A stretch of 64,000 nucleotides of DNA, from positions 156,736,001-156,800,000 of the forward strand of contig OX597814.1 in NCBI GenBank assembly GCA_951406725.2, in the 5' to 3' direction. The position numbers and the translations under genes were made by a program. Positions within the stretch are counted from its first letter, which is position 1. Each line of letters begins with the position of its first letter. Under the pieces are notes generated by a model that had not been told where the DNA came from, made no database searches, and saw only the letters and a program-made list of their open reading frames with translations. This stretch comes from Octopus vulgaris. Its lineage: Eukaryota. This document shows, piece after piece, positions 11,693-64,000 of the stretch.

Positions 11693-12189
11693 CCCATTAG
11701 CATTCAGATTACATCAAATGTAATGTTTATTTATTCACATTGCTTTCAATTAATCATGCAGTATCTTGTAGCTTTCAGATTTTGATGATGTGATTATTTT
11801 TAGAATGACATTGTATGTAGATGTGAGAGACCAGATCTATCTTGCTTGAACATCATCATCATTTAGCGTCCGCTTTCCATGCTAGCATGGGTTGGACGGT
11901 TCAACTGGGGTCTGTGAAGCCAGAAGGCTGCATCAGGCCGTCTGATCTGGCAGTGTTTCTACGGCTGGATGCCCTTCCTAATGCCAACCACTCCGTGAGT
12001 GTAGTGGGTGCTTTTTATGTTCCACCCGCACAGGAGCCAGACGAAGCTGGCAAATGACCACGGACGGATGGTGCTTTTTACGTGCCACCAGCACGGGGGC
12101 CAGGTGAGGCTGGCAACGGCCACGATCGGATGACACATATAGCATGTAAAATATTTAAGCCTGATATGGCCAGTTTAAAAGCTAAGGGG
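11693..12189. mobile_element. piggyBac-type MITE interrupted by an RTE 3' end (11851-12135)
   Basis: CCCATTAGCATT start and gctaagggg|ttaa end; MITE homology resumes after the RTE piece. Confidence 0.75.
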
Positions 12190-14780: not shown

Positions 14781-15840
14781 TTTCTTCATAATTAGTTTTA
14801 ACTTATTAGTTACTTCTAAGCACCTGACTGATTCCCTTTATGACATAGGCCAAGACTGTCATATTTAACAACAACGCTCAGATAGAAAACTAAATGTGCT
14901 GCATTATTTTCCTTACTAGACCCCAAGATGCTAGATTATAAACCATCACTTTTTAATCAGCTGCATAACCTGCGGCAGTCTGAATTAAGACTAAATGCAA
15001 ACATCATCACTTAATGTAAGGTTTCCTTACTGGCATGAGTTGAACTGATCTCACAGCATCTGAGGGATCTGTCCAACACATGCCAACATGGGTTGGTAGC
15101 AGGAAGAGCATCCAACCAAAGAGTCCTATCCAAGCCTTGCTAACATGGAAAAGCTGATATAAATGTACAGAAGATACTCCACCACACACACACAAATATG
15201 AATCTCATCATCATCATTGCTTAATGTCTATTTTCCATGCTAGCATGGGTTGGATGGTTCAACTGGGGTCTGGGAATCCATGAGGCTGCACCAGGCTCCA
15301 ATCTGATCTGGCAGTGTTTCTACAGCTGGATGCCCTTCCTAACGCCAACCACTCCATGAGTGTAGTGGGTGCTTTTTATGTACCACCAGCACAAGTGCCA
15401 AGGGAGGCTGGCAACGGCCATGATCGGTTGGTGCTTTTTATGTGCCACCTGCACGGAAGCCAGTCAAGGCAGCGCTGGCATCAGCCACTTTCAGATGGTG
15501 CTTTGTACATGCTACCGGCACAGGTATCACATCTACAATTTCCATTTGATTTTTTAATGTTGATCAAATGAAAATTGTAGTTGTGATACCCGTGCCAGTG
15601 GTATCTATACTAGTAAATTTTTACACACACACTGTAATTCTAAGCAAGTCATCAAAAGGATACAAGTAAGACCGACACAATTTGGGATACTGCCTTTATA
15701 CACAAATACAGAATAGACATACAGACATCATCTAAAAGAAGGCAATTCAGCAAGTAGTAAGGACAGCCTCATCAAATTACACTACAACAGCATATCTGCA
15801 GGCATATTTCTTCATTTTTACCCCTGATACTAATTACTGC

Positions 15841-24096: not shown

Positions 24097-25126
24097 GTGT
24101 AGCAACATCAAAGGAAGATTAACCGGGAAGATAGCTTTCGTGTGTGGCAGATGCACATGGGCAATAAGCTCCACAGATGCTCAGGAAACAGATTCCATCA
24201 CATGCCAGGGGAAGAAACTAGAAGTAGTTGATAGCTTCCACTACCTAGGTGACCAAGTCTGTAGTGGGAGTGGATGCTCAGAGAGTGTTACCACTAAATA
24301 AGAATAACCTGGCAAAGTTCAGAAAGCTTCTACCCCTACTGGTGACAAAGGGTCTCTCACTCAGAGTGAAAGGTAGATTGTACGATGCATGTGTGCAAAT
24401 TGCCATGCTTCACTGTAGTGAAACATGGGGCCACAACTGCTGAAGACATGCATAAGCTTGAAAGAAATGAAGTTAGCATGATCTGCTAGATGAGTAATGT
24501 CAGCATGCACACATGACAGAGTGTAAGCGCCCCAAGAGAAATGTTGGATATAAGAAGCAGCGGATATGGTGTACAAGATAGACGTCTGCATTGGTATGCT
24601 CATGTACTACAGATGGATGAGGAGAGCTGTGTGAAGAAGTGCCATTCCCAAAGAGTTGAAGGAATCCAGAGTAGAGGGAGACCCAGGAAGACATGGAATG
24701 AGGTGGTGAAGCATGACCTTCGAATGTTGGGCCTCACAGAGGCAATAACAAAAGACGAGTCCTCTGGCGATATGCTGTGACTGAGAAGACCCGGCAAATA
24801 AAGTTAGTTCACAGCTGTAACCTACACCAGTGTCACATAACCAGCCCACTCAAAAGTACCTTGGATCGTAGGGCAACATGCTGTGCTTGAGGAGACCTAC
24901 TGAGTCAAATCAAAATCAAATAGAAATTGTAGTTGTGATCCCCATGCCAGTGGCATGTAAAAAGCACCCACAACACTCTCAGAGTAGTTAGCATTAGAAA
25001 GGGCATCCAGCTGTAGAAACACTGCCAGATCAGATTGGAACCTGGTGCAGCCTCCTGGCTTTCCTGACCCCAGTCGAACCGTCCAACCCATGCCAGTATG
25101 GAAAACAGACATTAAATGATGATGAT
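24097..25126 (+). mobile_element. 5'-truncated, frameshifted RTE LINE (end of PHD insert, RT C-terminus, unexpanded 3' UTR, GAT tail)
   Basis: Frames read CSNIKGRLTGKIAFVCGRC...LEVVDSFHYLGD, KGLSLRVKGRLYDACV, RLHWYAHVLQMDEE...GRPRKTW. Confidence 0.92.
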
Positions 25127-25143
25127 ATATATATAAATACACT

Positions 25144-29590: not shown

Positions 29591-30770
29591 TTATATCTTG
29601 TCAAATCTTGAGCCCTCAACTCCTAATAGTCAAAGGAGTACTAGCATCACATATAGCATGTCTTGGGACAGTTTTTAGACTGAATAGAGACTGCTTCTCA
29701 CTAGGTCTGATCACAAGTAATTTCTTCCAGAAAAAGAAACAGACAGAAAGAATCAATCTCAGTGCAGTCCTAGTACTTTATCAATAGATCCTTCCCCACA
29801 AAAAAACCAAAAAAAACATGAACAGCTAAGTCAACTACAACAGTATTTGAACTCAGAGTACAAATAGTTGGAACAAATCTCACAAGGCAATTTATTCGAT
29901 GACCTAATGACTCAACCAATTTACTATCTATCTTGAGCTCATAAACCAAATGCAAAACATCCTCCCAACATTTATTCCCTGTGTGAACCATTCATCTCTG
30001 CAACAACACTTCCACAAATTCCCATTGAAACTATAAATCAAAAAAGTAAATTTAAGAGAAACTGCCAGAGCAAAAATAACAACAATAACAATATCAAAGA
30101 TGATAATAACACTAATAATAACATAATATACAATGAAATTAAAAGATTGGTAAATAGGCAAGCACTAATTCATATTCTTTTGTTGATTTATGTGTAAGTG
30201 AATATTTTACTAACAAAACAAAATAAAGTTCATTATTTGAATGATTTCAAACTTAACAGATCGATCAAACAGTATTTAGACGTTTGGTACAAGAGTGTGA
30301 GGAAGATATTATTACATATAGTTAAAGCAAACTCAGATGCTAATTCCCTTGGTGATGATCAGTCTTCTGTGAGGAAACAAAGAGTTCTATCAAAGAGTAA
30401 AAATTTAGCAGTGTGTGCGAACAAGAAACATCATAACCTGGAAGGAAGGAAGGAGGGGAAATTGATGGATGGCAGGATTGGTAGAATGGCAGACAAAATC
30501 CCTAATAACAGTCAGTTACATCCTTTTCCTTTCTGAGTTCAATTCCTGCAGGAGTTGACTTGCTGTGTGGAATCTATAAATTATGTACCAGTCAAGCACT
30601 GGATTTACTGTGATTAATATACCCCATCTCCCAAATTTCTGGCCTAGTGTCAATACAAAAAGTTATCATCATCATCATCACCCTTATCATTATTGTTATT
30701 ATTATCATCATTATTATTTTTCATATTGTTATCATTATCATCATCATCATAATTATGATCATTATTATCA

Positions 30771-31693
30771 TCATCGTTTAACATCTGCTTTCCATGCTAG
30801 CATGGGTTGGATGGTTTGACTGAGGACTGGTGAGCCAGAGGCTGCACCAGGCTCAATCTGATCTGGCAAAGTTTCTACAGCTGGATGCCATTCCTAATGC
30901 CAACCCCTCCGAGAGTATAGTGGGTGCTTTTATGTGCCACCGGCATGAGGTTCCAGTCAGGTGGTTCTGGCAATGACCACTCTCAAAAGGTATTTTTACA
31001 TGTTACCTGCACAGAAGCCAGTCCAGCACAACTGGCAATGACCATGCTCGAATGTTGTTTTTCACGTGCCACCAGCACATGTGCTGGCAAGGCAACGCAA
31101 GCAACGATCACGCTTGAATAGTGCTTTTCACGTGTCACCGGCATGGGAGCCAATCTGTGGCCCTTGGCAACGATCATGCTTGGATGTACTTTTAACGTTC
31201 AACTGGCACAAGTGCCAATCAGGCAGTACTGTCATCGCCATGTCAGCGATTTTGATTTGTTTACATTTGCCTCAATAGGTCTTCGCAAGCAAAGTTCACT
31301 GTCCAATGAATGAGAGGTTCTCGTAAGTGTGCCAGTTACACCCCATGTTCGGATGTGCTTTTAACATTCCACAGGCATGAGTGCCAATTAGGTGGTACAG
31401 TCATTGGCCATGTCAGCAATTTTGATTTTGATTTCACTTGCCTCAATAGGTCTTCACAAGCAAAGTTTATTGTCCAATGAATGAGGGGCATCCATAAGTG
31501 GACTGGTTGCACCCACTGGCATAGGCCATGGGCTATGGTCTCACTTGGCTTGTCAGGTCTTCTCAAGCACAGCATATCTCCCAAAAGGTTGTGTTTCACC
31601 ACCTCATCCCAGGTTTTCCTGGGTCTACCTCTTCCACAGATTTCCTCAACAGCTACGGTGTGACACTTTTTCACACAGCTGTCCTCATTCATC
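30771..31693 (-). mobile_element. 5'-truncated RTE with ORF end and a 3' UTR containing several diverged ~60-bp units
   Basis: MNEDSCVKKCH...GRGRPRKTWDEVVKH on the minus strand; (CAT)n tail merges into the 30660-30775 microsatellite. Confidence 0.88.
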
Positions 31694-36235: not shown

Positions 36236-37319
36236 AAAAGTCAAGTACTTTTCCTATCATTAACCATTTACAGTAGGGACTATGTGCATTTTATCATACT
36301 ACCAGCACTAGAGAGCTCTGCCTTGTAGCAGTTCTTATTTGGAGTTGCTGCTTTCTTAAGGTTACCATGAAACAAGTGGTGTTAATATAGTCTTCATTTA
36401 TTCCTGCAAAATCAATCATAATACTGTTCCTCTACATTCACTAGGGTTGTTTCTTTACTTTCTCGTCTCTTCATTTTCTAGGTGTCAACAAAACAGGTAC
36501 CAGTCATGTATTGGGATTAATTCATTCATTCACAGATCAGTGCCAATTTAAGAGATCAATATGCATATGACAAACGTTACAAGACTTAGAGATGCCAAAC
36601 AGAAGAACTACACAAACAAATGTTAGATGGGGAGGTGCTATTTGATGGAGATTTGGTTGCTATATCTAACAGACTGATGGCCCTTATAGAGAGCCCATTG
36701 CTAGTTTATATAGGAAAATGTAAATGAATCGATGAGAAAAGGAATTGAAAGAATTCATTGGTATCATATAACTGATATGATTAATGGAAACAAAAACATA
36801 TACAGACAGTAATGAAGGTTAAACAAGGTGGACTTAGACAGAAGTAGCTTGAATAAAATTTAGCTCAATAAGTGACTGAATTAAAGTGGATACTTGACCT
36901 AAGAATGAAATACTTTTCAACATTGCAGACCCACTTTACTGCATTAAACAGTATTTTAAATCAAGGATGAAGAGGAAGAGGAAAAGCAATGGAGATAAAC
37001 ATATGCAAAGATACTAATTCAGCTAATTGATGCCTATACCAGTTGAACGCAATCCAGATTGGACTGAATAATACCTAAAACAGTAGCCAAATCTTTCTCT
37101 CTCAAATCACATTGTATTTTTTAAGAAAAGAAATAATGAATTAAAAGTAGGAAGGACAGAATACTGTAGCTTGATTCAGATTATGCTTAAACAACAACAT
37201 CTCAAAAAAAAAAAGTAAAAAAAAAGGGCAAGGTGATCACGGTTGACCTGGTCCTAAACAACAGTAACAACCACCTCAAAATATAAGGTGAAAAAGTGAC
37301 ACAAATATAGCCTTACAAG

Positions 37320-37543
37320 TCTTTTACCTGTTCCAGTCATTTTGACTGCGTCCATGCTGGAGCATCACCTTTAGTCAAGCAAATCAACTCCAGGACTCAT
37401 TCTCTGTAAGCCTAGTACTTATTCTATTGGTCACTTTTGCCGAACCGCTAAGTTACGGGGACGTAAACACACCAGCATTGGTTGTCAAGCGGTATTGGGG
37501 GAACGAACATAGACACACAAACATATACACATATATATATATA
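37320..37543 (-). mobile_element. SINE family A, 3' half (5' half displaced to 47775-47961)
   Basis: Homology stops at the central (TA)n and resumes 10.2 kb later. Confidence 0.9.
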
Positions 37544-37617
37544 TATGATGAATAAAAGGGGACTGAGGGCCGAGCCCTGGTGTACCTCTACTTCAACCCG
37601 AAATTCTTCACTATATT

Positions 37618-38710
37618 CCCTTTTATTCATCATAGTCCTCCAGGCAATAACAGAGGAATTCAAAACAGGTTGCCCTGGGAGCTCCTCTATGCTGATGACC
37701 TGGCCCTCATAGCAGAATCACTACCGGAACTAAAAAAGAAATTTCGGGTGTGGAAACAAGGGTTAGAATCTAAGGGCCTTAGAGTAAATGTAGCGAAGAC
37801 CAAAGTTATAGTATGCAGAAAGGCGAACTCAGCACACACCCCATCGGGCAGGTGGCCCTGCTCGAGCTGTAAGAAAGGTGTAGGTAGAAACTCCATAAGA
37901 TGCACCCAGTGTAAGCTATGGACGCATAAGAGGTGCAGCAACATCAAAGGGAAATTAACTGATAAGATAGCTTTCATGTGCGGCAGATGCATAGGGACAA
38001 TAGACACCACAGATACTAAAAAAACAGATTCCATCACACTCCAGGGGGAGAAACTAGAAGTAGTTGATAGTTTCCGCTACCTGGTTGACCAAGTTAGTAG
38101 TGGGGGTGGATGCACAGAGAGTGTCACCATTAGAATACGAATAGCCTGGGTAAAGTTTAGAAAGCTCCTACCCATACTGGCGACAAAGGGTCTCTCACTC
38201 AGAGTGAAAGGTAGATTGTATGATGCATGTGTGCGAACCGCCATGCTTCACGGCAGTGAATCATGGGCCGTGACTGCAGAGGACATGCGTAGACTTGAAA
38301 GAAATGAAGCTAGCATGATCCGCTGGATGTGTAATGTCAGTGTAAATGCACGACAGAGTGTAAGCACCCTGAGAGAAATGCTAGGCATAAGAAGCATCAG
38401 ATGCGGTGTGCAAGAGCGACGCTTGCGATGGTATGGTCATGTACTGCGGATGGATGAGGAGAGATGTGTGAAGAAGTGCCACTCCCGAACAGTTGAAGGA
38501 ATCAGGGGGAGAGGTAGACCCAGGAAGACATGGGATGAGGTAGTCAAGCATGACCTCATAGCGTTGGGCCTCACTGAGGCAATGGCGAAGGACCGAGATC
38601 TCTGGAGATGTGCTGTGACTACTAAGACCCGAGATGCTTCCGGCACCAGTTCCGCATACCCCCTGCCCATACAAAGTACCCTGGATCCCGGAACATCTCG
38701 CTGTGCTTGA
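37618..38710 (+). pseudogene. RTE reverse transcriptase, C-terminal half with inserted C4HC3 finger; one 1-bp frameshift near 37673
   Basis: LLFIIVLQAITEEFKTGC/PWELLYADDLAL...GLRVNVAKTKV...LEVVDSFRYL...RLRWYGHVLRM...GRPRKTW; open to TGA at 38710. Confidence 0.93.
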
Positions 38711-41700
38711 GGAGACCTGTTGAGTCAAGTGCATATACATATACATGAACATCGATACATGAACATCAAATCAAATATCAATGGAAACAGTTGTTGATTC
38801 CTGTGCCGGGGACACATAAAAAGCACCATCCGAACGTGGCCGTTGCCAGTGCAGCCTCCCCTGGCTCCTGTGCCAGTGGCACATAAAAAGCACCATCCGA
38901 CCGTGACCGATGCCAACCCCGCCTCGAATGGCTTCTGTGCCGGTGGCACATGAACATCGAACCAAATATCAATGGAAACAGTAGTTGTGATACCTGTGCC
39001 GGTGACACATAAAAAGCACCATCCGAACGTGGCCGTTGCCAGTGCAGCCTCCACTGGCTTCTGTGCCAGTGACACATAAAAAGCACCAACCGATCGTGGG
39101 ATCCCGGAACATCTCGCTGTGCTTGAGGAGACCTGTTGAGTCAAGTGCATGTCCATGTACATGAGAATCGAACCAAATATCAATGGAAACAGTTGTAGTT
39201 GTGATACCTGTGTCGGTGACACACCGCCTCGAATGTCTTCTGTGCCGGTGGCACACACCAACCGATCGTGGGATCCCGGAACATCTCACTGTGCTTGAGG
39301 AAACCTGGTGAGTCAAGTGCATGTACCGGAACATCTCGCTGTGCTTGAGGAGACCTGTTGAGTCAAGTGCATGTACATGAGATTCGAACCAAATATCAAT
39401 GGAAACAGTAGTAGTTGTGATACCTGTGCCGGTGACACATAAAAAGCACCATCCGAACGTGGCCGTTGCCAGTGCAGCCTCCACTGGCTTCTGTGCCGGT
39501 GGCACATAAAAAGCTCCATCCGAACGTGACCGATGCCAACCCTGCCAGCACCATCCGAACGTGGCCGTTGCCAGTGCAGCCTCCACTGGCTTCTGTGCCG
39601 GTGGCACATAAAGAGCACCAACCGATCGTGGGATCCCGGAACATCTCGCTGTGCTTGAGGAGACCTGTTGAGTCATGTACATGTACATGAGAAGCGAACC
39701 AAATATCAATGGAAACAGTTGTAGTTGTGATACCTGTGCCGGTGACACAACGCCTCGAATGGCTTCTGTGCCGGTGGCACACACCAACCGATCGTGGGAT
39801 CCCGGAACATCTCGCTGTGCTTGAGGAGACCTGGTGAGTCAAGTGCATGTACCGGAACATCTCGCTGTGCTTGAGGAGACCTGTTGAGTCAAGTGCATGT
39901 ACATGTACATGAGAATCGTACCAAATATCAATGGAAACAGTTGTAGTTGTGATACCTGTGCCGGTGACACACCGCCTCGAATGGCTTCTGTGCCGGTGGC
40001 ACACACCAACCGATCGTGGGATCCCGGAACATCTCACTCTGCTGGAGGAGACCTGGTGAGTCAAGTGCATGTACCGGAACATCTCGCTGTGCTTGAGGAG
40101 ACCTGTTGAGTCAAGTACATGTACATGAGAATCGAACCAAATATCAATGGAAACAGTAGTAGTTGTGATACCTGTGCCGGTGACACATAAGAAGCACCAT
40201 CCGAACGTGGCCGTTGCCAGTGCGGCCTCCACTGGCTTCTGTGCCAGTGACACATAAAAAGCACCAACCGATCGTGGGATCCCGGAACATCTCGCTGTGC
40301 TTGAGGAGACCTGTTGAGTCAAGTGCATGTCCATGTACATGAGAATCGAACCAAATATCAATGGAAACAGTTGTAGTTGTGATACCTGTGCCGGTGACAC
40401 AACGCCTCGAATGGCTTCTGTGCTGGTGGCACACACCAACCGATCGTGGGATCCCGGAACATCTCGCTGTGCTTGAGGAGACCTGGTGAGTCAAGAGCAT
40501 GTACCGGAACATCTCGCTGTGCTTGAGGAGACCTGTTGAGTCAAGTGCATGTACATGAGAATCGAACCAAATATCAATGGAAACAGTAGTAGTTGTGATA
40601 CCTGTGCCGGTGACACATAAAAAGCACCATCCGAACGTGGCCGTTGCCAGTGCAGCCTCCCCTGGCTCCTGTGCCGGTGGCACATAAAAAGCACCATCCG
40701 ACCGTGACCGATGCCAACCCCGCCTCGAATGGCTTCTGTGCCGGTGGCACATGAACATCGAACCAAATATCAATGGAAACAGTAGTTGTGATACCTGTGC
40801 CGGTGACACATAAAAGGCACCATCCGAACGTGGCCGTTGCCAGTGCAGCCTCCACTGGCTTCTGTGCCAGTGACACATAAAAAGCACCAACCGATCGTGG
40901 GATCCCGGAACATCTCGCTGTGCTTGAGGAGACCTGTTGAGTCAAGTGCATGTCCATGTACATGAGAATCGAACCAAATATCAATGGAAACAGTTGTAGT
41001 TGTGATACCTGTGTCGGTGACACACCGCCTCGAATGTCTTCTGTGCCGGTGGCACACACCAACCGATCGTGGGATCCCGGAACATCTCACTGTGCTTGAG
41101 GAAACCTGGTGAGTCAAGTGCATGTACCGGAACATCTCGCTGTGCTTGAGGAGACCTGTTGAGTCAAGTGCATGTACATGAGATTCGAACCAAATATCAA
41201 TGGAAACAGTAGTAGTTGTGATACCTGTGCCGGTGACACATAAAAAGCACCATCCGAACGTGGCCGTTGCCAGTGCAGCCTCCACTGGCTTCTGTGCCGG
41301 TGGCACATAAAAAGCTCCATCCGAACGTGACCGATGCCAACCCTGCCAGCACCATCCGAACGTGGCCGTTGCCAGTGCAGCCTCCACTGGCTTCTGTGCC
41401 GGTGGCACATAAAGAGCACCAACCGATCGTGGGATCCCGGAACATCTCGCTGTGCTTGAGGAGACCTGTTGAGTCATGTACATGTACATAAGAAGCGAAC
41501 CAAATATCAATGGAAACAGTTGTAGTTGTGATACCTGTGCCGGTGACACAACGCCTCGAATGGCTTCTGTGCCGGTGGCACACACCAACCGATCGTGGGA
41601 TCCCGGAACATCTCGCTGTGCTTGAGGAGACCTGGTGAGTCAAGTGCATGTACCGGAACATCTCGCTGTGCTTGAGGAGACCTGTTGAGTCAAGTGCATG

Positions 41701-44700
41701 TACATGTACATGAGAATCGTACCAAATATCAATGGAAACAGTTGTAGTTGTGATACCTGTGCCGGTGACACACCGCCTCGAATGGCTTCTGTGCCGGTGG
41801 CACACACCAACCGATCGTGGGATCCCGGAACATCTCACTCTGCTGGAGGAGACCTGGTGAGTCAAGTGCATGTACCGGAACATCTCGCTGTGCTTGAGGA
41901 GACCTGTTGAGTCAAGTGCATGTACATGAGAATCGAACCAAATATCAATGGAAACAGTAGTAGTTGTGATACCTGTGCCGGTGACACATAAGAAGCACCA
42001 TCCGAACGTGGCCGTTGCCAGTGCAGCCTCCACTGGCTTCTGTGCCAGTGACACATAAAAAGCACCAACCGATCGTGGGATCCCGGAACATCTCGCTGTG
42101 CTTGAGGAGACCTGTTGAATCAAGTGCATGTCCATGTACATGAGAATCGAACCAAATATCAATGGAAACAGTTGTAGTTGTGATACCTGTGTCGGTGACA
42201 CGCCGCCTCGAATGGCTTCTGTGCTGGTGGCACACACCAACCGATCGTGGGATCCCGGAACATCTCGCTGTACTTGAGGAGACCTAGTGAGTCAAGAGCA
42301 TGTACCAGAACATCTCGCTGTGCTTGAGGAGACCTGTTGAGTCAAGTGCATGTACATGAGAATCGAACCAAATATCAATGGAAACAGTAGTAGTTGTGAT
42401 ACCTGTGCCGGTGACACATAAAAAGCACCATCCGAACGTGGCCGTTGCCAGTGCAGCCTCCCCTGGCTCCTGTGCCGGTGGCACATAAAAAGCACCATCC
42501 GACCGTGACCGATGCCAACCCCGCCTCGAATGGCTTCTGTGCCGGTGGCACATGAACATCGAACCAAATATCAATGGAAACAGTAGTTGTGATACCTGTG
42601 CCGGTGACACATAAAAAGCACCATCCGAACGTGGCCGTTGCCAGTGCAGCCTCCACTGGCTTCTGTGCCAGTGACACATAAAAAGCACCAACCGATCGTG
42701 GGATCCCGGAACATCTCGCTGTGCTTGAGGAGACCTGTTGAGTCAAGTGCATGTCCATGTACATGAGAATCGAACCAAATATCAATGGAAACAGTTGTAG
42801 TTGTGATACCTGTGTCGGTGACACACCGCCTCGAATGTCTTCTGTGCCGGTGGCACACACCAACCGATCGTGGGATCCCGGAACATCTCACTGTGCTTGA
42901 GGAAACCTGGTGAGTCAAGTGCATGTACCGGAACATCTCGCTGTGCTTGAGGAGACCTGTTGAGTCAAGTGCATGTACATGAGATTCGAACCAAATATCA
43001 ATGGAAACAGTAGTAGTTGTGATACCTGTGCCGGTGACACATAAAAAGCACCATCCGAACGTGGCCGTTGCCAGTGCAGCCTCCACTGGCTTCTGTGCCG
43101 GTGGCACATAAAAAGCTCCATCCGAACGTGACCGATGCCAACCCTGCCAGCACCATCCGAACGTGGCCGTTGCCAGTGCAACCTCCACTGGCTTCTGTGC
43201 CGGTGGCACATAAAGTGCACCAACCGATCGTGGGATCCCGGAACATCTCGCTGTGCTTGAGGAGACCTGTTGAGTCATGTACATGTACATGAGAAGCGAA
43301 CCAAATATCAATGGAAACAGTTGTAGTTGTGATACCTGTGCCGGTGACACAACGCCTCGAATGGCTTCTGTGCCGGTGGCACACACCAACCGATCGTGGG
43401 ATCCCGGAACATCTCGCTGTGCTTGAGGAGACCTGGTGAGTCAAGTGCATGTATCGGAACATCTCGCTGTGCTTGAGGAGACCTGTTGAGTCAAGTGCAT
43501 GTACATGTACATGAGAATCGAACCAAATATCAATGGAAACAGTAGTAGTTGTGATACCTGTGCCGGTGACACATAAAAAGCACCATCCGAACGTGGCCGT
43601 TGCCAGTGCAGCCTCCCCTGGCTCCTGTGCCGGTGGCACATAAAAAGCACCATCCGACCGTGACCGATGCCAACCCCGCCTCGAATGGCTTCTGTGCCGG
43701 TGGCACATGAACATCGAACCAAATATCAATGGAAACAGTAGTTGTGATACCTGTGCCGGTGACACATAAAAAGCACCATCCGAACGTGGCCGTTGCCAGT
43801 GCAGCTTCCACTGGCTTCTGTGCCAGTGACACATAAAAAGCACCAACCGATCGTGGGATCCCGGAACATCTCGCTGTGCTTGAGGAGACCTGTTGAGTCA
43901 AGTGCATGTCCATGTACATGAGAATCGAACCAAATATCAATGGAAACAGTTGTAGTTGTGATACCTGTGTCGGTGACACACCGCCTCGAATGTCTTCTGT
44001 GCCGGTGGCACACACCAACCGATCGTGGGATCCCGGAACATCTCACTGTGCTTGAGGAAACCTGGTGAGTCAAGTGCATGTACCGGAACATCTCGCTGTG
44101 CTTGAGGAGACCTGTTGAGTCAAGTGCATGTACATGAGATTCGAACCAAATATCAATGGAAACAGTAGTAGTTGTGATACCTGTGCCGGTGACACATAAA
44201 AAGCACCATCCGAACGTGGCCGTTGCCAGTGCAGCCTCCACTGGCTTCTGTGCCGGTGGCACATAAAAAGCTCCATCCGAACGTGACCGATGCCAACCCT
44301 GCCAGCACCATCCGAACGTGGCCGTTGCCAGTGCAACCTCCACTGGCTTCTGTGCCGGTGGCACATAAAGAGCACCAACCGATCGTGGGATCCCGGAACA
44401 TCTCGCTGTGCTTGAGGAGACCTGTTGAGTCATGTACATGTACATGAGAAGCGAACCAAATATCAATGGAAACAGTTGTAGTTGTGATACCTGTGCCGGT
44501 GACACAACGCCTCGAATGGCTTCTGTGCCGGTGGCACACACCAACCGATCATGGGATCCCGGAACATCTCGCTGTGCTTGAGGAGACCTGGTGAGTCAAG
44601 TGCATGTATCGGAACATCTCGCTGTGCTTGAGGAGACCTGTTGAGTCAAGTGCATGTACATGTACATGAGAATCGAACCAAATATCAATGGAAACAGTAG

Positions 44701-47697
44701 TAGTTGTGATACCTGTGCCGGTGACACATAAAAAGCACCATCCGAACGTGGCCGTTGCCAGTGCAGCCTCCCCTGGCTCCTGTGCCGGTGGCACATAAAA
44801 AGCACCATCCGACCGTGACCGATGCCAACCCCGCCTCGAATGGCTTCTGTGCCGGTGGCACATGAACATCGAACCAAATATCAATGGAAACAGTAGTTGT
44901 GATACCTGTGCCGGTGACACATAAAAAGCACCATCCGAACGTGGCCGTTGCCAGTGCAGCCTCCACTGGCTTCTGTGCCAGTGACACATAAAAAGCACCA
45001 ACCGATCGTGGGATCCCGGAACATCTCGCTGTGCTTGAGGAGACCTGTTGAGTCAAGTGCATGTCCATGTACATGAGAATCGAACCAAATATCAATGGAA
45101 ACAGTTGTAGTTGTGATACCTGTGTCGGTGACACACCGCCTCTAATGTCTTCTGTGCCGGTGGCACACACCAACCGATCGTGGCATCCCGGAACATCTCA
45201 CTGTGCTTGAGGAAACCTGGTGAGTCAAGTGCATGTACATGAGATTCGAACCAAATATCAATGGAAACAGTAGTAGTTGTGATACCTGTGCCGGTGACAC
45301 ATAAAAAGCACCATCCGAACGTGGCCGTTGCCAGTGCAGCCTCCACTGGCTTCTGTGCCGGTGGCACATAAAAAGCTCCATCCGAACGTGACCGATGCCA
45401 ACCCTGCCAGCACCATCCGAACGTGGCCGTTGCCAGTGCAGCCTCCACTGGCTTCTGTGCCGGTGGCACATAAAGAGCACCAACCGATCGTGGGATCCCG
45501 GAACATCTCGCTGTGCTTGAGGAGACCTGTTGAGTCATGTACATGTACATGAGAAGCGAACCAAATATCAATGGAAACAGTTGTAGTTGTGATACCTGTG
45601 CCGGTGACACAACGCCTCGAATGGCTTCTGTGCCGGTTGCACACACCAACCGATCGTGGGATCCCGGAACATCTCGCTGTGCTTGAGGAGACCTGGTGAG
45701 TCAAGTGCATGTACCGGAACATCTCGCTGTGCTTGAGGAGACCTGTTGAGTCAAGTGCATGTACATGTACATGAGAATCGTACCAAATATCAATGGAAAC
45801 AGTTGTAGTTGTGATACCTGTGCCGGTGACACACCGCCTCGAATGGCTTCTGTGCCGGTGGCACACACCAACCGATCGTGGGATCCCGGAACATCTCACT
45901 CTGCTGGAGGAGACCTGGTGAGTCAAGTGCATGTACCGGAACATCTCGCTGTGCTTGAGGAGACCTGTTGAGTCAAGTGCATGTACATGAGAATCGAACC
46001 AAATATCAATGGAAACAGTAGTAGTTGTGATACCTGTGCCGGTGACACATAAGAAGCACCATCCGAACGTGGCCGTTGCCAGTGCAGCCTCCACTGGCTT
46101 CTGTGCCAGTGACACATAAAAAGCACCAACCGATCGTGGGATCCCGGAACATCTCGCTGTGCTTGAGGAGACCTGTTGAGTCAAGTGCATGTCCACGTAC
46201 ATGAGAATCGAACCAAATATCAATGGAAACAGTTGTAGTTGTGATACCTGTGTCGGTGACACACCGCCTCGAATGGCTTCTGTGCTGGTGGCACACACCA
46301 ACCGATCGTGGGATCCCGGAACATCTCGCTGTGCTTGAGGAGACCTGGTGAGTCAAGAGCATGTACCGGAACACCTCGCTGTGCTTGAGGAGACCTGTTG
46401 AGTCAAGTGCATGTACATGAGAATCGAACCAAATATCAATGGAAACAGTAGTAGTTGTGATACCTGTGCCGGTGACACATAAAAAGCACCATCCGAACGT
46501 GGCCGTTGCCAGTGCAGCCTCCCCTGGCTCCTGTGCCGGTGGCACATAAAAAGCACCATCCGACCGTGACCGATGCCAACCCCGCCTCGAATGGCTTCTG
46601 TGCCGGTGGCACATGAACATCGAACCAAATATCAATGGAAACAGTAGTTGTGATACCTGTGCCGGTGACACATAAAAAGCACCATCCAAACGTGGCCGTT
46701 GCCAGTGCAGCCTCCACTGGCTTCTGTGCCAGTGACACATAAAAAGCACCAACCGATCGTGGGATCCCGGAACATCTCGCTGTGCTTGAGGAGACCTGTT
46801 GAGTCAAGTGCATGTCCATGTACATGAGAATCGAACCAAATATCAATGGAAACAGTTGTAGTTGTGATACCTGTGTCGGTGACACACCGCCTCGAATGGC
46901 TTCTGTGCCGGTGGCACACACCAACCGATCGTGGGATCCCGGAACATCTCGCTGTGCTTGAGGAGACCTGGTGAGTCAAGTGCATGTACCAGAACATCTC
47001 GCTGTGCTTGAGGAGACCTGTTGAGTCAAGTGCACGTACATGAGAATCGAACCAAATATCAATGGAAACAGTAGTAGTTGTGATACCTGTGCCGGTGACA
47101 CATAAAAAGCACCATCCGAACGTGGCCGTTGCCAGTGCAGCCTCCACTGGCTTCTGTGCCGGTGGCACATAAAAAGCTCCATCCGAACGTGACCGATGCC
47201 AACCCCGCCAGCACCATCCGAACGTGGCCGTTGCCAGTGCAGCCTCCACTGGCTTCTGTGCCGGTGGCACATAAAGAGCACCAACCGATCGTGGGATCCC
47301 GGAACATCTCGCTGTGCTTGAGGAGACCTGTTGAGTCAAGTGCATGTACATGTACATGAGAATCGAACCAAATATCAATGGAAACAGTTGTAGTTGTGAT
47401 ACCTGTGCCGGTGACACACCGCCTCGAATGGCTTCTGTGCCGGTGGCACACACCAACCGATCGTGGGATCCCGGAACATCTCGCTGTGCTTGAGGAGACC
47501 TGTTGAGTCAAGTGCATGCATGTACATGTACATGAGAATCGTACCAAATATCAATGGAAACAGTTGTAGTTGTGATACCTGTGCCGGTGACACACCGCCT
47601 CGAATGGCTTCTGTGCCGGTGGCACACACCAACCGATCGTGGGATCCCGGAACATCTCGCTGTGCTGGAGGAGACCTGGTGAGTCAAGTGCATGTAC
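38683..47697. repeat. ~9-kb higher-order satellite built from RTE 3' UTR modules; HOR steps 1801, 1801, 1155, 1155, 1751 bp
   Basis: Equivalent ORF ends at 39261, 41062, 42863, 44018, 45173, 46924; the modules match the single-copy UTR at 24850-24970. Confidence 0.95.
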
Positions 47698-47774
47698 CCC
47701 TGGCTCCCCAGACCCCGGTCGAACCGTCCAACCCGTGCTAGCGCGGAAAACGGACGTTAAACGATGATGATGAT

Positions 47775-47961
47775 ATATATATATATATATATATATATAC
47801 GACGAGCTTCTTTCAGTTTCCATCTACCAAATCTACTCACAAGGCTTTGGTCGGTCCAAGGCTATAGTAGAAGACACTTGCCCAAGGTGCCACACAGTGG
47901 GGCTGAACCTGGAACCATGTGGTTGGTAAGCAAGCTACTTACCACACACCAACTCCTACGC
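47775..47961 (-). mobile_element. SINE family A, 5' half with tRNA-like head
   Basis: (TA)n-cgacgagcttctttcagtttcc...ctcctacgcc, colinear with 61050-61219. Confidence 0.9.
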
Positions 47962-47978
47962 CTTTGAGAATAAGTTAT

Positions 47979-50619: not shown

Positions 50620-51335
50620 AAATGCATGTGGCTTAGTGGTTAGAGTAGTTAGCTCACAACCATAAGGTCACAAGTTCGATTCCCAGCAGTGTGTTGTATC
50701 TTTGAGCAAGACACTTTACTTCACATTGCTCCAGTCCACTTAGCTGATAAAAGTGAGTTGTCCTAGTAATTCAAAGGGTCGGCTATGTTGCATTCTGTGA
50801 GGCAATGAATCTTCCTGAGAACTACATTAAGGCAGCAAGCTTGCAGAAATGTTAGCACGCCGGGTGAAATGTTTAGCGGTATTTCATCTGCTGTTACGTT
50901 CTGAGTTCAAATCCCACCGAGGTCGACTTTGCCTTTCATCCTTTCGGGTCGATAAATTAAGTACCAGTTACACCCTGGTTGGGTTCGATGTAATCAACTT
51001 AATCTGTTTGTCTGTCCTTGTTTGTTTCCTCTGTGTTTAGCCCCTTGTGGGTAGTAAAGAAATAGGTATTTCGTCTGTCTTTACGTTCTGAGTTCAAATT
51101 TCGCCATAGTCGACTTTGTCTTTCATCCTTCCGGGGTCGATAAATTAAGTACCAGTTACGCACTGGGGTTGATGTAATTGACTTAATTTGTTTGTCTGTC
51201 CTTGTTTGTCTCCTTGGTGTTTAGCCCCTTGTAGGTAGTAAAGAAATCTGTATGTGTTTGTGAAGTGCTCAGCTACTTGCACACTAACTTCATGAGCAGG
51301 CTGTTCTGTTGATCAAATCAACTGGAACACTTGCA
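50620..51335 (+). mobile_element. tRNA-derived SINE interrupted by a head-to-tail dimer of SINE family B (50830-51248)
   Basis: Outer element matches the 3' body of 15841-16204 on both sides of the insert; the inner unit repeats from ggtatttc at 50878 and 51065. Confidence 0.82.
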
Positions 51336-52642: not shown

Positions 52643-53262
52643 CCGTGTCGGTGGCACGTAAAAGCACCATCCGTTTGTGTCCGTTGCCAGCCTCGCCTGG
52701 CCCCTGTGCAGGTGACATGTAAAAGCACCATCCGTTCGTGGCCGTTTGCCAGCTCTGTCTGGACCCCGTGTCGGTGGCACGTAAAAGCACCATCCGTTCG
52801 TGTTCGTTGCCAGCCTCACCTGGCCCCCGTGCCGGTGACACGTAAAAGCACCATCCGTTCGTGGCCGTTTGCCAGCCTCGCCTGGCCCCCGTGCCAGTGA
52901 CACGTAAAAGCACCATCCATTTCGTGGCCGTTTGCCAGCTCTGTCTGGCCCCCGTGTTGGTGGCACGTAAAAGCACCATCCGTTCGTGTCCGTTGCCAGC
53001 CTCGCCTGGCCCCTGTGCCGGTGACACGTAAAAGCACCATCCGTTCGTGGCCGTTTGCCAGCTCTGTCTGGCACCTGTGCAGGTGGCACGTAAAAAGCAC
53101 CCACTACACTCACGGAGTGGTTGGTGTTAGGAAGGGCATTCAGCCATAGAAACACTGCCAGATCTGACTGGGCCTGATGAAGCCTTCCAGCTTCACAGAC
53201 CCCAGTTGAACCGTCCAACCCATGCTAGCATGGAAAACGGACACTCGATGATGATGATGATG
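52643..53262 (+). mobile_element. RTE 3' end with 8 tandem ~61-62-bp UTR units
   Basis: Eight gtaaaagcacc-containing units, then the standard terminal segment and GAT tail. Confidence 0.9.
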
Positions 53263-54361: not shown

Positions 54362-54768
54362 TCTCTCTTTTCTCTTTTACTCTTTTACTTGTTTCAGTCA
54401 TTTGACTGCGGCCATGCTGGAGCACCGCCTTTAGTCGAGCAAATCGACCCCGGGACTTATTCTTTGTGAGCCCAGTACTTATTCTATCGGTCTCTTTTGC
54501 CGAACCGCTAAGTGACAGCGACGTAAACACACCAGCATCGGTTGTCAAGCAATGCTAGAGGGACAAACACAGACACACAAACATATACATACACATATAT
54601 ACATATATACGACAGGCTCCTTTCAGTTTCCGTCTACCAAATCCACTCACAAGGCATTGGTCGGCCCGAGGCTATAGCAGAAGACACTTGCCCAAGATGC
54701 CACGCAGTGGGACTGAACCCAGAACCATGTGGTTGGTAGGCAAGCTACTTACCACACAGCCACTCCTA
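54362..54768 (-). mobile_element. Young full-length SINE family A (partial copies at 53810-54020 and 55408-55558)
   Basis: CpG-intact; near-identical reverse complement of 57540-57921. Confidence 0.92.
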
Positions 54769-54859: not shown

Positions 54860-55406
54860 GTTGAGGCAAGTGAAATCAAATCAAATTCGATGACTGGCAT
54901 CCGTGCTAGCAGGGTGCAAAGAGCACCATATGAGTGTGATCATTGACAGAGCGGCTAACTGGCTTCAGTATCAGTGGCACTTGAAAGGCACCATTCGAGC
55001 ATGATCGTTACCAGCGTCGCCTTACTGGCACTCAAGCCCCGTGCTAGTAGTGTATTAAGAGCACCATCCGAGCATGATCGTTGCCAGAGCGGCTATCTGG
55101 TCTTCGTGCTGGTGGCACGTAAAAGATACCATTCGAGCGTGATCATTACCAGCATCGCCTTACTAGCACCTGTGCCGGTGGCATGTGTAAAAGATTCGAG
55201 CGAGGTCATTGCCAGTACTGCCTGACTGGCCCCGTGCCAGTGCCACATAAAAGCACCCACTACACTCTCGGAGTGGTTGGCATTAGGAAGAGCATCCAGC
55301 TGTAGAAACTCTGCCAGATCGAGATTGAATCTGGTTCACCAGCCCTCAGTCATTCGTCCAACCCATGCTAGCATAGAAAGCAGACGTTAAATGATGATGA
55401 TGATGA
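54860..55406 (+). mobile_element. RTE 3' UTR fragment with ~6 diverged units; a similar copy at 59133-59546
   Basis: Repeated gtgc.ggtggcac.taaaa.cacc motif, terminal segment and GAT tail. Confidence 0.85.
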
Positions 55407-56196
55407 TATGACGAGCTTCTTTCAGTTTCCATCTACAAAATCCACTCACAAGGCTTTGGTTGGCCTGAGGCTTTAGTAGAAGACACTCGCCCAAGTGGGA
55501 CTGAACCCAGGACCATGTGGTTGGTAAGCAAGCTACTTACCACACAGCCACTCCTGTACCTTTATTCATTTATATGTATGTGTGTATGTGTTTACTCCCT
55601 AGTCTGTACTAATTGTTATATTCTTGTCATTTTTCAATGAAATGTTTCATAAAAGATATGTAAACATATAAAATAACTAAGACCAGTGAATAACATTAAT
55701 ATATACATAAAAGCAAAATACAAATTGTCACTGACTAATCAGGAGAAATGAAATGGGTGAAGGACATCAGTGAAGTAAATGGATGATATACAGTAAATAT
55801 TTTAAACAAAGAATCACAATGTAAATTGGTGAGGGGGAAGCAGGGAGAAGTGATGAAAGTAGAGAGACAGGAATATGGGTGTCAACAGAAGAGGCAGATA
55901 TGTTAAATACAATGAAAGACAGACAGAAGTGAGAGATAGAAAATGAGAAAGATAAAGAAAAGAGCTACTGAATGACAGAGTGAAACACTGCTAAAGTTAT
56001 GTTTTAATAACTTATCAATACAGAGGAGTTAAATATATTTTCATTTATTTGGAAATGTGGTGAATTATAGATCATTATGCTATGAAATAGAGGTCTGAAA
56101 ATTTTGTTTGCTTTTACACAGAAATTAGTCTAAATAAGGTAACAGCCGCTGATCAACATGAAATATATGTTCTGGGTTTAAGTTTACACACACACA

Positions 56197-58873: not shown

Positions 58874-60834
58874 TGGACAGTGTCTCAAAAGAAAGTTAAA
58901 AAGTGAGTTGACTATTTCTAAGGTCTTACATCTTTTGATATCAATCCTCTTGAGGCCACATCAAGTTCTACGATACAAACTTTACATTCAAAATTCTCAA
59001 AGTAAAAAACCTTCCATCAAAATTTTATGTTAATTTATGCCCAAACACCAGTTTATTAACAATACTTTATTTCAATGCTAAACTAGAGCCGAAAATATAT
59101 CTATAGATTCTAACAGCTTGGAGCGCTAACAGCTCCATCCAAGCGGGATCACTACCAGAGCAGCTGTCTGGCTTATAAAGAGCACCATTTGAATGTGATC
59201 ATTGTTAGCGTCGCCTCACTGGCACTTGTACCAGTGGCACATGAACAAAACATTTGAGCGAGGTCATTGCCAGTGCTGCTAGTCTGACTCCTGTGCAGTT
59301 GGCACATGAAAAACACCATTTTCGAGCATGGCCATTGCCAGTACCGCCAGACTGGCCCTCGTGCCGGTGGCACGTAAAAGCACCCACTACACTCTCAGAG
59401 TGGTTGGCATTAGGAAGGGCATCCAGCTGTAGAAACTCTGCCAGATCAGATTGGAGCCTGGCACAGCCATCTGGTTCGCCAGTCCTCAGTCAAATTGTCC
59501 AACCCATGCTAGCATGGAAAGCGGACGTTAAACGATGATGATGATGACATAAATAAAGGTATTTACAATATTGACTAATATCTATAGATATATTCAGACA
59601 AGGAAGTTTATAACATCACTGATGCCCCATCTCAACAAGGTACCATGTGGATGCCTGGGTCTTTCAGTATCTCAGCCTTGCAATCACTGCTGGGTTTTGG
59701 ACTACCTCAAAAATTTACCATTCTGTGTTATTTTCCCATCCTGATGTTATTAGGTGATACAGTGTTGGAAACATGAACCAGCTGTTAATTCAATACTGTA
59801 CTTGCTTTTAAATAGACACCAAATTATTTTGTTAATCAAAAGCAGTCGTAAACAAAACATGGAAAAATAGAAAAGAATACAGAGAATATATTTTACATGA
59901 AAATAAAGCTGTTATTTCATGAAATAATTAGTATTGATTATTGTCATGGTAAAATAATTACGGTCATGGCCAAAATAATAACGGACAGCTGGTTTAGTTT
60001 CAATACAATGTTTGTCATAATTATTGTCATCATTAACAGCCTCTACATATATATTTAAATGTACAAGTATTGACTGAACAGGTCAGTAGTAAATTCACAA
60101 GCTTGTTTAACTAGTGCAAATAAGTTTATTTGTCTATGTTGTAGTTTATTCACCACTTAGTGTTGATCAAGGTGTTCTAGGCATAACATCCCTTACTTTT
60201 GTAAATCCAGTGTGTCCACCCTATGTAAAAATTTTTAAATGACAAGGTGTGATTTGAGGGAGATTTGACAGCTATCTAAGCAGGTCAAACAAAAACATGG
60301 ACACTTCCTTGTTGGTTCCTCAAGCTTAGTACTGTGATCCACTGTTTTATCGACTTGCTTTGAGCAGGCTTCATTCACCAGACTGACACAACCGAGATGT
60401 TGCTCCAACTGATGTTCCAATCCTCTTATACTGGAAGCCTTTTGACTGAATGCTCTGTTTTCAATCAAAAGAAAGCCAGTGACATGAATTTAAATCATGA
60501 ATGTGAAAAGCTTGAACAGGTACTGAAAGGCATCGCTTCTGACACTAACAATTACACTAACAATTCCACTAATCAATTTCAAATAAAAAGATGAAAGGCA
60601 AAAATGATCTCAGCAGGATTTGGAATCAGAGTCCAGACAGATAGAACAAATACAAGAAATTAATTCTATGCAAAGCTCAAATGACTCAGCCCAACACTAC
60701 CTTTAGTGTTTGAGTGTGTGTGTGTGTGTGTGTGTGTGCGTATATATATACTAATATGTTCGTAACCCTTTACCATTTAAACCAGCTATGTCTGGCTCAA
60801 CTATTCTACATATTCATTCATTTTTTTTTCATTT

Positions 60835-61219
60835 ATTCATTTACTTGTTTCAGTCATTTGACTGTGGTCATGCTGGAGCACCACCTTTAGTCGAGCAAAT
60901 CGACCCCAGGACTTATTCTTTCTGAGCCTAGTACTTATTCTATCAGTCTCTTTTGCCGAACAGCTAAGTTATGGGGATGTAAACACACCAACATCGGTTG
61001 TCAAGTGATGTTGGGGGAGGGAGGCAAACACAACACACAAACATACACATATATACGACGAGCTTCTTTCAGTTTCCGTCTACCAAATCCACTCACAAGG
61101 CTTTGGTCGGCCCGAGGTTATAGCAGAAGACACTTGCCCAAGGTGCCACGCAGTGGGACTGAACCCAGAACCATGTGGTTCGTAAGCAAGCTACTTACCA
61201 CACAGCCACTCCTACGCCT
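60835..61219 (-). mobile_element. SINE family A, nested in a piggyBac-type MITE (60766-60815, resuming ~63969)
   Basis: Full-length match; MITE sequence ...attctacatatt continues as ttcaaactgg...cctctcacac at the window end. Confidence 0.85.
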
Positions 61220-61221
61220 AT

Positions 61222-63960
61222 ATCATCATCATCGTTTAACGTCCGCTTTCCGCGCTAGCACGGGTTGGACGGTTTGACCGGGTCTGGGAAGCCAGGGGCC
61301 GCACCAGGCTCCAGTCTGAATCTGGCAGAGTTTCTACGGCTGGATGCCCTTCCTAACGCCAACCACTCCGTGAGTGGATTGGGTGCTTTTTACGTGCCAC
61401 CTGCACAGGGGCCGGAGGGTCCGGCATCGTCACGATCGGTTCGAGCATTTTAACGTGTCAGCGGCACGGGGGCAACGAGGTCCGGGGTACTTTGGGGATC
61501 GGGGTACTTTGGGGATCCAGGGTACTTTGGGGATCCGGGGTACTTAGAATGGGTAGGGGGTATGTGGAATTGCTGCAGAAAGCAGCCCGGGTCTTTGTAG
61601 TCACAGCATTTATCGTCACTGAGTAACGTAATTAGGTAGAGGAAAGAAATACAGATATTCTAAGAGTTGAGTTGGGGAGGGGGGTCCAGTTGAGGCGGGT
61701 AATATAGGGGAGCAACCAGTGGGAAGGTTGGGGTAAGGAGGAACGATGGCAGGAAGGGTTGGTGTAGGTTCCTAAGAAATAAAAACGTAGGATATTACGA
61801 GGCGGGAGGGTACTAAAGGGGATGGTCGGAATGAGGCAGTGTCAGGAGGAAGCGTAAGATCGGTGGGCAGTTGATGAGCTATGGCGCTAGCAGGGCAGTT
61901 GATGAGCTATGGCGCTAGCAGCTTGTCTTTTCACAGTGAAAGCATATGAGGAGAAGGGGTAGTGGGGAGAGGAGGGAGTAGGGCGTACCCGGTGTAGATG
62001 AGTAAGGCGTATCCGGTGTAGATGGTGAGAACTGGGTATAATGGTATTGGTGGTGGCGGTGAGAACAGTGTTCACCGGTATTGGTGGTGGGGGTGAGAAC
62101 AATGTTCATCGGTATTGGTGGTGGGGTTGGGGGGGCGGGCGCACCGCCACTGGCGGAAAGATGGGAAGAGATGGGATTACGGCTTGAGGCAGCCTAATGG
62201 TTAAATTTTGTAGAGAGAGAGATAGGAAAGATAAATCAAGTTATGGCGAAGGCTTGAAAGTAGTCTAAAAAGGTTAAATTTTCGTAACAGTGTATGAATA
62301 AACGTAGTAACAACAAATAAAAAGAGTAAGATAAATTTTTAAGAACTTGCTGCGGGCATCGACCAGGAGTTGAAATTGAAGAAGAAAGTAAGTTGAATTG
62401 GCGGAAAGATGGGAAGAGATGGGATTACGGCTTGAGGCAGCCTAATGGTTAAATTTTGTAGAGAGAGAGATAGGAAAGATAAATCAAGTTATGGCGAAGG
62501 CTTGAAAGTAGTCTAAAAAGGTTAAATTTTCGTAACAGTGTATGAATAAACGTAGTAACAACAAATAAAAAGAGTAAGATAAATTTTTAAGAACTTGCTG
62601 CGGGCATCGACCAGGAGTTGAAATTGAAGAAGAAAGTAAGTTGAATTGGCGGAAAGATGGGAAGAGATGGGATTACGGCTTGAGGCAGCCTAATGGTTAA
62701 ATTTTGTAGAGAGAGAGATAGGAAAGATAAATCAAGTTATGGCGAAGGCTTGAAAGTAGTCTAAAAAGGTTAAATTTTCGTAACAGTGTATGAATAAACG
62801 TAGTAACAACAAATAAAAAGAGTAAGATAAATTTTTAAGAACTTGCTGCGGGCATCGACCAGGAGTTGAAATTGAAGAAGAAAGTAAGTTGAATTGGCGG
62901 AAAGATGGGAAGAGATGGGATTACGGCTTGAGGCAGCCTAATGGTTAAATTTTGTAGAGAGAGAGATAGGAAAGATAAATCAAGTTATGGCGAAGGCTTG
63001 AAAGTAGTCTAAAAAGGTTAAATTTTCGTAACAGTGTATGAATAAACGTAGTAACAACAAATAAAAAGAGTAAGATAAATTTTTAAGAACTTGCTGCGGG
63101 CATCGACCAGGAGTTGAAATTGAAGAAGAAAGTAAGTTGAATTGGCGGAAAGATGGGAAGAGATGGGATTACGGCTTGAGGCAGCCTAATGGTTAAATTT
63201 TGTAGAGAGAGAGATAGGAAAGATAAATCAAGTTATGGCGAAGGCTTGAAAGTAGTCTAAAAAGGTTAAATTTTCGTAACAGTGTATGAATAAACGTAGT
63301 AACAACAAATAAAAAGAGTAAGATAAATTTTTAAGAACTTGCTGCGGGCATCGACCAGGAGTTGAAATTGAAGAAGAAAGTAAGTTGAATTGGCGGAAAG
63401 ATGGGAAGAGATGGGATTACGGCTTGAGGCAGCCTAATGGTTAAATTTTGTAGAGAGAGAGATAGGAAAGATAAATCAAGTTATGGCGAAGGCTTGAAAG
63501 TAGTCTAAAAAGGTTAAATTTTCGTAACAGTGTATGAATAAACGTAGTAACAACAAATAAAAAGAGTAAGATAAATTTTTAAGAACTTGCTGCGGGCATC
63601 GACCAGGAGTTGAAATTGAAGAAGAAAGTAAGTTGAATTGGCGGAAAGATGGGAAGAGATGGGATTACGGCTTGAGGCAGCCTAATGGTTAAATTTTGTA
63701 GAGAGAGAGATAGGAAAGATAAATCAAGTTATGGCGAAGGCTTGAAAGTAGTCTAAAAAGGTTAAATTTTCGTAACAGTGTATGAATAAACGTAGTAACA
63801 ACAAATAAAAAGAGTAAGATAAATTTTTAAGAACTTGCTGCGGGCATCGACCAGGAGTTGAAATTGAAGAAGAAAGTAAGTTGAATTGGCGGAAAGATGG
63901 GAAGAGATGGGATTACGGCTTGAGGCAGCCTAATGGTTAAATTTTGTAGAGAGAGAGATA
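61222..63960 (-). mobile_element. Putative bipartite non-autonomous RTE: 248-bp array, C-rich leader, last ORF codons, 3' UTR and (GAT)n tail
   Basis: Minus strand near 61610 reads tgctgtgactacaaagacccg...ataccccct.cccat...aagtaccc.ggatccc, matching the ORF end at 38611-38690; (TA) on both flanks. RTE origin of the leader is inferred. Confidence 0.65.
62151..63960. repeat. Tandem array of a 248-bp unit, 7.3 copies, apparently identical
   Basis: tggcggaaag starts at 62151, 62399, 62647, 62895, 63143, 63391, 63639, 63887. Confidence 0.97.
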
Positions 63961-64000
63961 TATATATATATTCAAACTGGACAATGCATACCTCTCACAC

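Follow-up and report, generated by a model that had tools for sequence, protein, structure and literature searches.

How did the 3' UTR of a single retrotransposon copy in Octopus vulgaris come to consist of higher-order repeat units, and did the repetition arise before or after the element reached its present site? The window (the whole stretch of 64,000 nucleotides that was analysed) corresponds to positions 156,736,001-156,800,000 of the forward strand of OX597814.1 (GCA_951406725.2), and positions below refer to it. Within it, 37544-47774 is a single 5'-truncated RTE-type LINE insertion that splits a SINE at its (TA)n, and the LINE has a 3' UTR of 9.05 kb (exactly 9,052 bp) made up of six higher-order (HOR) units (Table 1). 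An earlier note, made from the sequence alone, had read this locus as a satellite born in situ, first by shuffling of modules and then by kilobase-scale unequal exchange. From the comparison with other copies we consider it fairly probable that one LINE copy inherited its UTR array ready-made and that a ~1.8-kb unit of it was amplified after insertion by DNA-level events.

Structure of the insertion and its array

Table 1. Features of the array-bearing LINE and its host SINE (window positions).
Feature	Position	Strand	Remarks
Host SINE, left part, ends in own (CA/TA)n microsatellite	37320-37546	unspecified	SINE alignment
Candidate left target-site duplication, (AT)8	37531-37546		within host SINE left part
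Inverted RT coding piece, 75 bp; 5' inversion of twin-priming pattern	37544-37618	-	sequence comparison
5'-truncated RT C-terminal coding region with PHD-like insertion	37618-38710	+	stop 38708-38710 inside first module A
Single-copy UTR start: first A and N modules	38689-38814	+	subfamily-specific variants
H1, 1,801 bp	38815-40615	+	about one inherited UTR array
H2, 1,801 bp	40616-42416	+	gapless against H1, 12 substitutions
H3, 1,155 bp	42417-43571	+	internal 646-bp deletion
H4, 1,155 bp	43572-44726	+	3 differences from H3; 2 derived variants common to H3/H4 only
H5, 1,751 bp	44727-46477	+	one 50-bp module collapsed
H6, older partial unit, 1,221 bp	46478-47698	+	without locus-private variants; 1.15-1.44% from H1-H5
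Element terminus, ends in (GAT)4	47699-47774	+	behind ~0.6-kb deletion; genome-unique junction
(AT)n, candidate right target-site duplication, and host SINE right part	47773-47963	unspecified	SINE alignment

Aligned to the intact copies at 54381-54768, 60837-61219 and 57920-57539, the two SINE halves cover consecutive parts that join within the internal (CA/TA)n, and the divergence of the halves from the majority sequence (10.3% on the left, 6.6% on the right) lies inside the spread of intact copies, which bears out the earlier claim that the whole 10.2 kb is enclosed by one split SINE. The (AT)n on either side would allow for a candidate target-site duplication of up to ~16 bp. Recombination of two adjacent elements between different SINEs was also considered and rejected, because H6 carries the markers of the subfamily, which has ~4 copies.

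The element was said to begin with RT coding sequence; it does, but its first 75 bp are inverted, which had been overlooked. The inverted piece starts 17 bp inside the forward part (17 bp overlap) and shares 3 nt of microhomology with the flank, a pattern that suggests twin priming during target-primed reverse transcription; 5' inversions of this type in cell assays are described as almost exclusively those of human L1 (PMC4245944). None of 30 other family copies showed a comparable 5' inversion, about half of these copies extending past the retrieved stretch. The RT region includes a PHD-like Cys/His insertion (~37859-37990; Pfam PF00628, below cut-off), which is annotated in many relatives of ~1,100 aa and is therefore lineage-wide. 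The RT C-terminal frame is open up to its TGA, and this stop does lie within the first module, as the earlier note had it. The right end, too, agrees with the earlier description of a normal RTE terminus with (GAT)n tail and of a junction lacking the terminal segment of other copies: ~0.6 kb was deleted there at 2-nt microhomology, and the deletion junction has a single match genome-wide. That the deletion was taken over from the source was rejected, as the junction is in no other copy. Lacking the endonuclease and the RT N-terminus, the copy cannot transpose alone; no host function is implied, and Rfam gave no matches in 36000-64000 of the window.

Decomposition of the array (38689-47698) yielded 51 A and 40 N modules. 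The HOR markers (38910, 40711, 42512, 43667, 44822 and 46573) reproduce the steps of 1801/1801/1155/1155/1751 bp reported earlier, and the difference between 1801 and 1751 is indeed one module, H5 being without exactly one of 50 bp. The units are 98.6-99.7% identical to each other and the modules inside them differ in length and content, which qualifies the units as HOR. Their internal boundary falls inside a ~49-bp cassette whose sequence does not differ between the first module and the internal ones; the deletions of 646 bp and 50 bp both lie at identical A/N module starts. Long antisense open frames within the array were read as by-products of the repeat. Satellites have been characterized as contiguous arrays that are long and have been amplified outside the element they came from (PMC7004042); the array described here is 9 kb long, inside a LINE and at one locus, with private variants and a HOR repetition found nowhere else in exact or one-mismatch searches, so that the earlier term "satellite" overstates the case. 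It may be classed as a compound VNTR at a single locus that has not yet reached the stage of a satellite.

The LINE family and its inherited module order

The family label RTE is based on structure, and the protein relatives retrieved are unnamed. In the near full-length sister L055, PF03372 (2e-9) is followed by PF00078 (6e-28); its endonuclease and RT domains occupy two frames of one decayed ORF of ~1,050 codons, and the family is therefore RTE-like by structure. Protein relatives (~1,085-1,130 aa, ~45-54% identity) likewise combine endonuclease and RT. A short tandem repeat replaces poly(A): the present copy ends in (GAT)n, as do almost all of the 32 distinct copies inspected. The ORF end of the family gave 3,565 first-look candidates genome-wide (2.8 Gb), and the 40 that were scored are 96-100% identical.

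The UTR was compared with that of 30 other copies, a non-random sample of the best ORF-end matches plus one, with one interrupted copy, two copies without ORF end and three duplicates left out. Their UTRs measure 377-3,206 bp (median 1,037) versus 9,052 bp here, and each is its own string of the same modules, which makes the family 3' UTR a VNTR of modular build. Many copies have simple UTRs of 0.4-0.7 kb, and at seven further loci, picked for repeated junctions, UTRs of 1.2-2.6 kb were found. The longest other UTR (3.2 kb, L047, C5:28.197-28.200 Mb) repeats a ~343-bp unit about four times at 95-98% identity and represents a smaller, independent expansion.

Three sisters on other chromosomes (C2:121.07M, C2:56.6M and C5:0.83M) are 98-99% identical to the array-bearing copy and share 11 diagnostic ORF sites with it. 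Their UTRs (1.7-2.2 kb) show the identical module order, including the 172+50-bp pairs, and the same module variants, and are mosaics of one another's variants. Of the first 1,927 bases of the array, 1,725 are collinear with the C2:56.6M sister (97.9% identity) and 1,359 and 1,210 with the other two, and 7,431 of the 8,986 array 25-mer positions (83%) recur verbatim in the three sisters; therefore, the 1,801-bp HOR unit corresponds to about one inherited UTR array. The three sisters, copies with the same module order of the kind that the earlier note had proposed to look for, place the shuffling before the insertion. A simpler, earlier stage is seen in the close relative L080, with a UTR of 0.8 kb. 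Two of the three sisters reach further 5' than the array-bearing copy, and the truncation point of the C5:0.83M sister lies at most 3 bp from the far end of the 75-bp inversion.

The copy near 24.9 kb of the window, previously taken as a sister that carries each module once, does have a short UTR with single modules, but these are degenerate and the copy is older. With ~80% identity over 24097-25130, module matches of 35/50, 24/33 and 12/18, and none of the 8,986 array 25-mer positions, it was rejected as ancestor or sister. Elsewhere in the window, a short RTE 3'-end copy (52643-53260) carries 7.4 tandem 62-bp cassettes related to that of the array, and others have 1-4 cassettes (11851-12132, 15205-15554, 30763-31217, 54901-55409 and 59174-59550).

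A further element of the window (61219-63969, minus strand) is young and non-coding, with a GAT tail and the same RTE 3' end as the array-bearing copy. This partner element comprises an ORF-end match (61530-61608), the terminus (61219-61298), a body of ~0.55 kb of unique sequence in which short tandem duplications occur, and, on the 5' side, an array in which 7.3 copies of a 248-bp monomer are 100% identical. Its dispersed copies are 96-99% identical, with 1-21 monomer starts (~247 bp) at 14 of 15 loci and lengths of up to ~5.2 kb; the monomers are locus-typical (246-248 bp, or 273-274 bp in older copies), and the copies lie mostly in (TA)n and are 5'-truncated within the array. The partner element is probably a retroposon mobilised by the RTE and a vehicle for the spread of tandem arrays. 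The RTE machinery here commonly targets (TA)n (about 9 of the 32 family copies and 10 of the 15 partner-element copies, judged by eye). Other repeats in the window are two-copy tandem duplications of 184 bp (50878-51247) and 171 bp (31175-31485) inside other dispersed repeats, and a degenerate 20-bp minisatellite of ~660 bp at the left edge (5-663).

Amplification of the kilobase unit

Restart junction 1 has 86 exact matches genome-wide, 25 of them here and at most 3 in each of 55 other loci, and restart junction 2 has 74 (6 here, at most 7 elsewhere, the maximum being in the copy with the 3.2-kb UTR). The subfamily junction has 16 of its 24 matches at this locus, and the HOR-start marker, present six times here, was found as a single occurrence at each of four further loci. 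No other locus with the private variants or a repeated HOR start was found by exact or one-mismatch searches of one haploid assembly, which old, diverged arrays could escape; the kilobase-scale amplification thus appears to be a unique feature of this locus. Between four and six substitutions are present in every H1-H5 unit that spans them, absent from H6 where spanned, and private to the locus (the range is given because 40191 and 39383 are private by their 15-mer context but their 11-mers are found elsewhere). Two of the private variants were searched genome-wide, with 5 and 4 occurrences here and in none of 19 matches elsewhere. Positions 39750, 40425 and 40496 were dropped as private variants since they are present at other loci.

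The relationship of the four subfamily copies, judged from 1,063 ORF columns, is star-shaped, with 11 sites common to all, none common to two or three, and 7/7/11/4 private changes (0.68% per copy). H1, H2 and H5 are also star-like (pairwise 0.57-0.69%), with 17 lineage changes in 5,353 bp, i.e., 0.32% per lineage, and H3 and H4 differ by 0.26% and share two derived variants exclusive to the pair. The HOR units are less diverged than the four-copy burst (0.32% vs. 0.68%; p=0.008 in a pooled rate test, though the UTR is more CpG-rich), whereas the ORF of the array-bearing copy alone (7/1,063 vs. 17/5,353) gave p=0.089, not significant (p=0.057 in an earlier form of the test). H3/H4 are probably younger than the H1/H2/H5 units, although the count of changes alone is borderline (p=0.059). 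Shared and single changes sum to ~0.55-0.65%, about the insertion age. With an octopus rate of 0.0036 per Myr given in PMC13282606, the three age layers would be ~1.9, 0.9 and 0.4 Myr old, a borrowed calibration with wide error. One unit of H1 looks converted, and gene conversion inside the array would likewise reduce HOR divergence.

The private shared variants, the lower divergence of the units and the younger H3/H4 are the reasons why amplification after insertion is favored. In this scenario, the modules would have been reshuffled along the source lineage via short homologies, and the copy would have inserted ~2 Myr ago (at the borrowed octopus rate) by target-primed reverse transcription with twin priming, bringing in an array of perhaps ~3 kb, namely one H unit and the H6 tail. 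After insertion and before amplification, the 4-6 private substitutions would have been gained. Mispairing of the identical ~49-bp cassettes at the array start and in its interior may then have raised the 1,801-bp unit to ~4 copies, by DNA-level unequal exchange or by template re-annealing (DNA-level events would have added ~6 kb in all); the star-like H1/H2/H5 would date this rise to about half of the element's age. Later, the 646-bp deletion, the duplication of the 1,155-bp unit that produced H3/H4 and the collapse of one 50-bp module could have followed (the loss of ~0.6 kb at the right junction may belong to any stage). The unequal exchange in situ of the earlier note is accordingly retained as probable, through the locus-private shared variants and the nested ages, and its exact route is what we infer.

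A less probable explanation, to which we give a minor but real share, is that the kilobase repetition predates or accompanies the insertion, either because the array expanded in an unsampled source bearing the private variants and was copied whole (10.2 kb) or through repeated template jumps as such a source was reverse-transcribed, leaving only the H3/H4 step and small edits as local events. One event of this kind would be expected to leave H1/H2/H5 star-like, as they are, and the mosaic UTRs of the sisters, one of which has just 4 private changes in 1,063 bp, fit it as well; template switching has been reported in RTE-clade LINEs (PMC4476161). The partner element points in the same direction: its arrays, with as many as 21 monomers, have 5' truncations that fall at different places within the monomer, and with its RTE 3' end and an insert of ~6 kb it suggests that long arrays can probably be reverse-transcribed whole. 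Nor was an orthologous allele with a smaller number of units seen. However, the private variants, the repeated HOR start and the right junction are at no other locus, the star of the four copies is perfect and lacks any internal branch, and the derived variants common to H3/H4 need time in DNA; the source would have to have left one daughter only and be missing from the assembly. Much less probable is an assembly that inflated or mis-joined the number of units, the array being shorter in the animal. No read was seen to span the array. On 36300-39760, the contigs of two public runs cover the unique left flank but break in the SINE, none of the listed pieces spanning the SINE-element junction, and two raw read runs placed 2 and 4 reads, but the substitutions are nested, 19 of 23 copy-specific changes are transitions, H1/H2 are without indels, the 646-bp and 50-bp deletions form distinct structural junctions, and the nearby 248-bp array shows no differences among 7 units. 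Shuffling of single modules of a simple UTR at the locus itself, followed by amplification into a satellite, is very improbable: the older window copy and the many simple UTRs of the family would suit it, but the modular UTR is family-wide, the shuffled order and the module variants are shared by three 98-99% identical copies elsewhere, restart junctions are also present at several dozen loci elsewhere, and the sisters hardly fit as daughters of a truncated copy beyond which two of them extend.

Comparison with known systems

Amplification after insertion would add a variant form to a known process; of wider reach is the modular UTR of the whole family, of which the array-bearing copy is the extreme. 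The retrotransposon-UTR route to satellites is documented chiefly in plant LTR elements and in finished LINE-derived satellites, and the value of this case is that one array shows three age layers while parent element and flanks are preserved and three young sisters serve as a control for the ancestral state. This allows testing of whether higher-order periodicity can come ready-made from a transposon and how fast arrays grow. Neither a new satellite family nor a host function is shown. More speculatively, and we hold this only as a tentative possibility, the family could be a genome-wide nursery of ready-made HORs and the locus a dated, still-turning-over intermediate (1 to 4 to 6 units), the array-spreading partner element included. 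If so, one unequal exchange at the insertion site would produce a HOR instantly with no long divergence of monomers, array length at the locus should differ among individuals of the population, and the RTE machinery would also spread multi-kilobase monomer arrays via a non-coding partner.

In the SVA retroposons, which are non-autonomous and driven by L1, an internal variable tandem array (the VNTR) travels with the element and varies among copies, whereas the octopus array belongs to a family of autonomous type and occupies its 3' UTR. In the same species, RTE-2_OV is described as a LINE with a single ORF for endonuclease and RT, a C2H2 finger and a ~600-nt, mostly microsatellite 3' UTR (PMC9115989); it resembles the present family in its single ORF and similar ORF length and differs, by description only, from its PHD-like insertion and modular UTR. 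Nothing found in the literature searched, a body of work largely outside subscription journals and Repbase/Dfam, describes a cephalopod RTE with a modular array in its 3' UTR.

Satellites derived from LINE 3' ends include the common cetacean satellite (L1), the chicken HinfI repeat (CR1) and 18HT (HeT-A/TART), as listed in a review (PMC9659126) in whose main text RTE as a whole word has no match. As in these, tandem DNA here arises from a non-LTR 3' end (module A includes the last ORF codons and the stop), but those satellites are established, whereas the octopus array remains in its parent copy with flanks and tail. The SINE-derived satellites of squamates (sSat) also form arrays inside retroposon copies with locus-specific subvariants, and their copy number is reported to vary between orthologous loci; they have units of 70-290 nt at many loci and up to ~1,000 units (PMC10702118), unlike the 1.8-kb compound unit at one octopus locus. 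A close parallel is found in the Ogre/Tat LTR-retrotransposons, in which hypervariable tandem repeats of the 3' UTR are described to expand into satellites, e.g., PisTR-A and FabTR of Lathyrus (PMC7004042, PMC9659126). Both systems have variable 3'-UTR tandem repeats across the family, with most copies short, few expanded and intermediates visible, but the octopus host is a non-LTR element, its modules are compound, the repeated unit is a whole 1.8-kb UTR array, and no free-standing or multi-locus satellite was found for it. By analogy, the octopus array may be regarded as the equivalent, in a LINE, of the path that leads from Ogre 3' UTRs to satellites.
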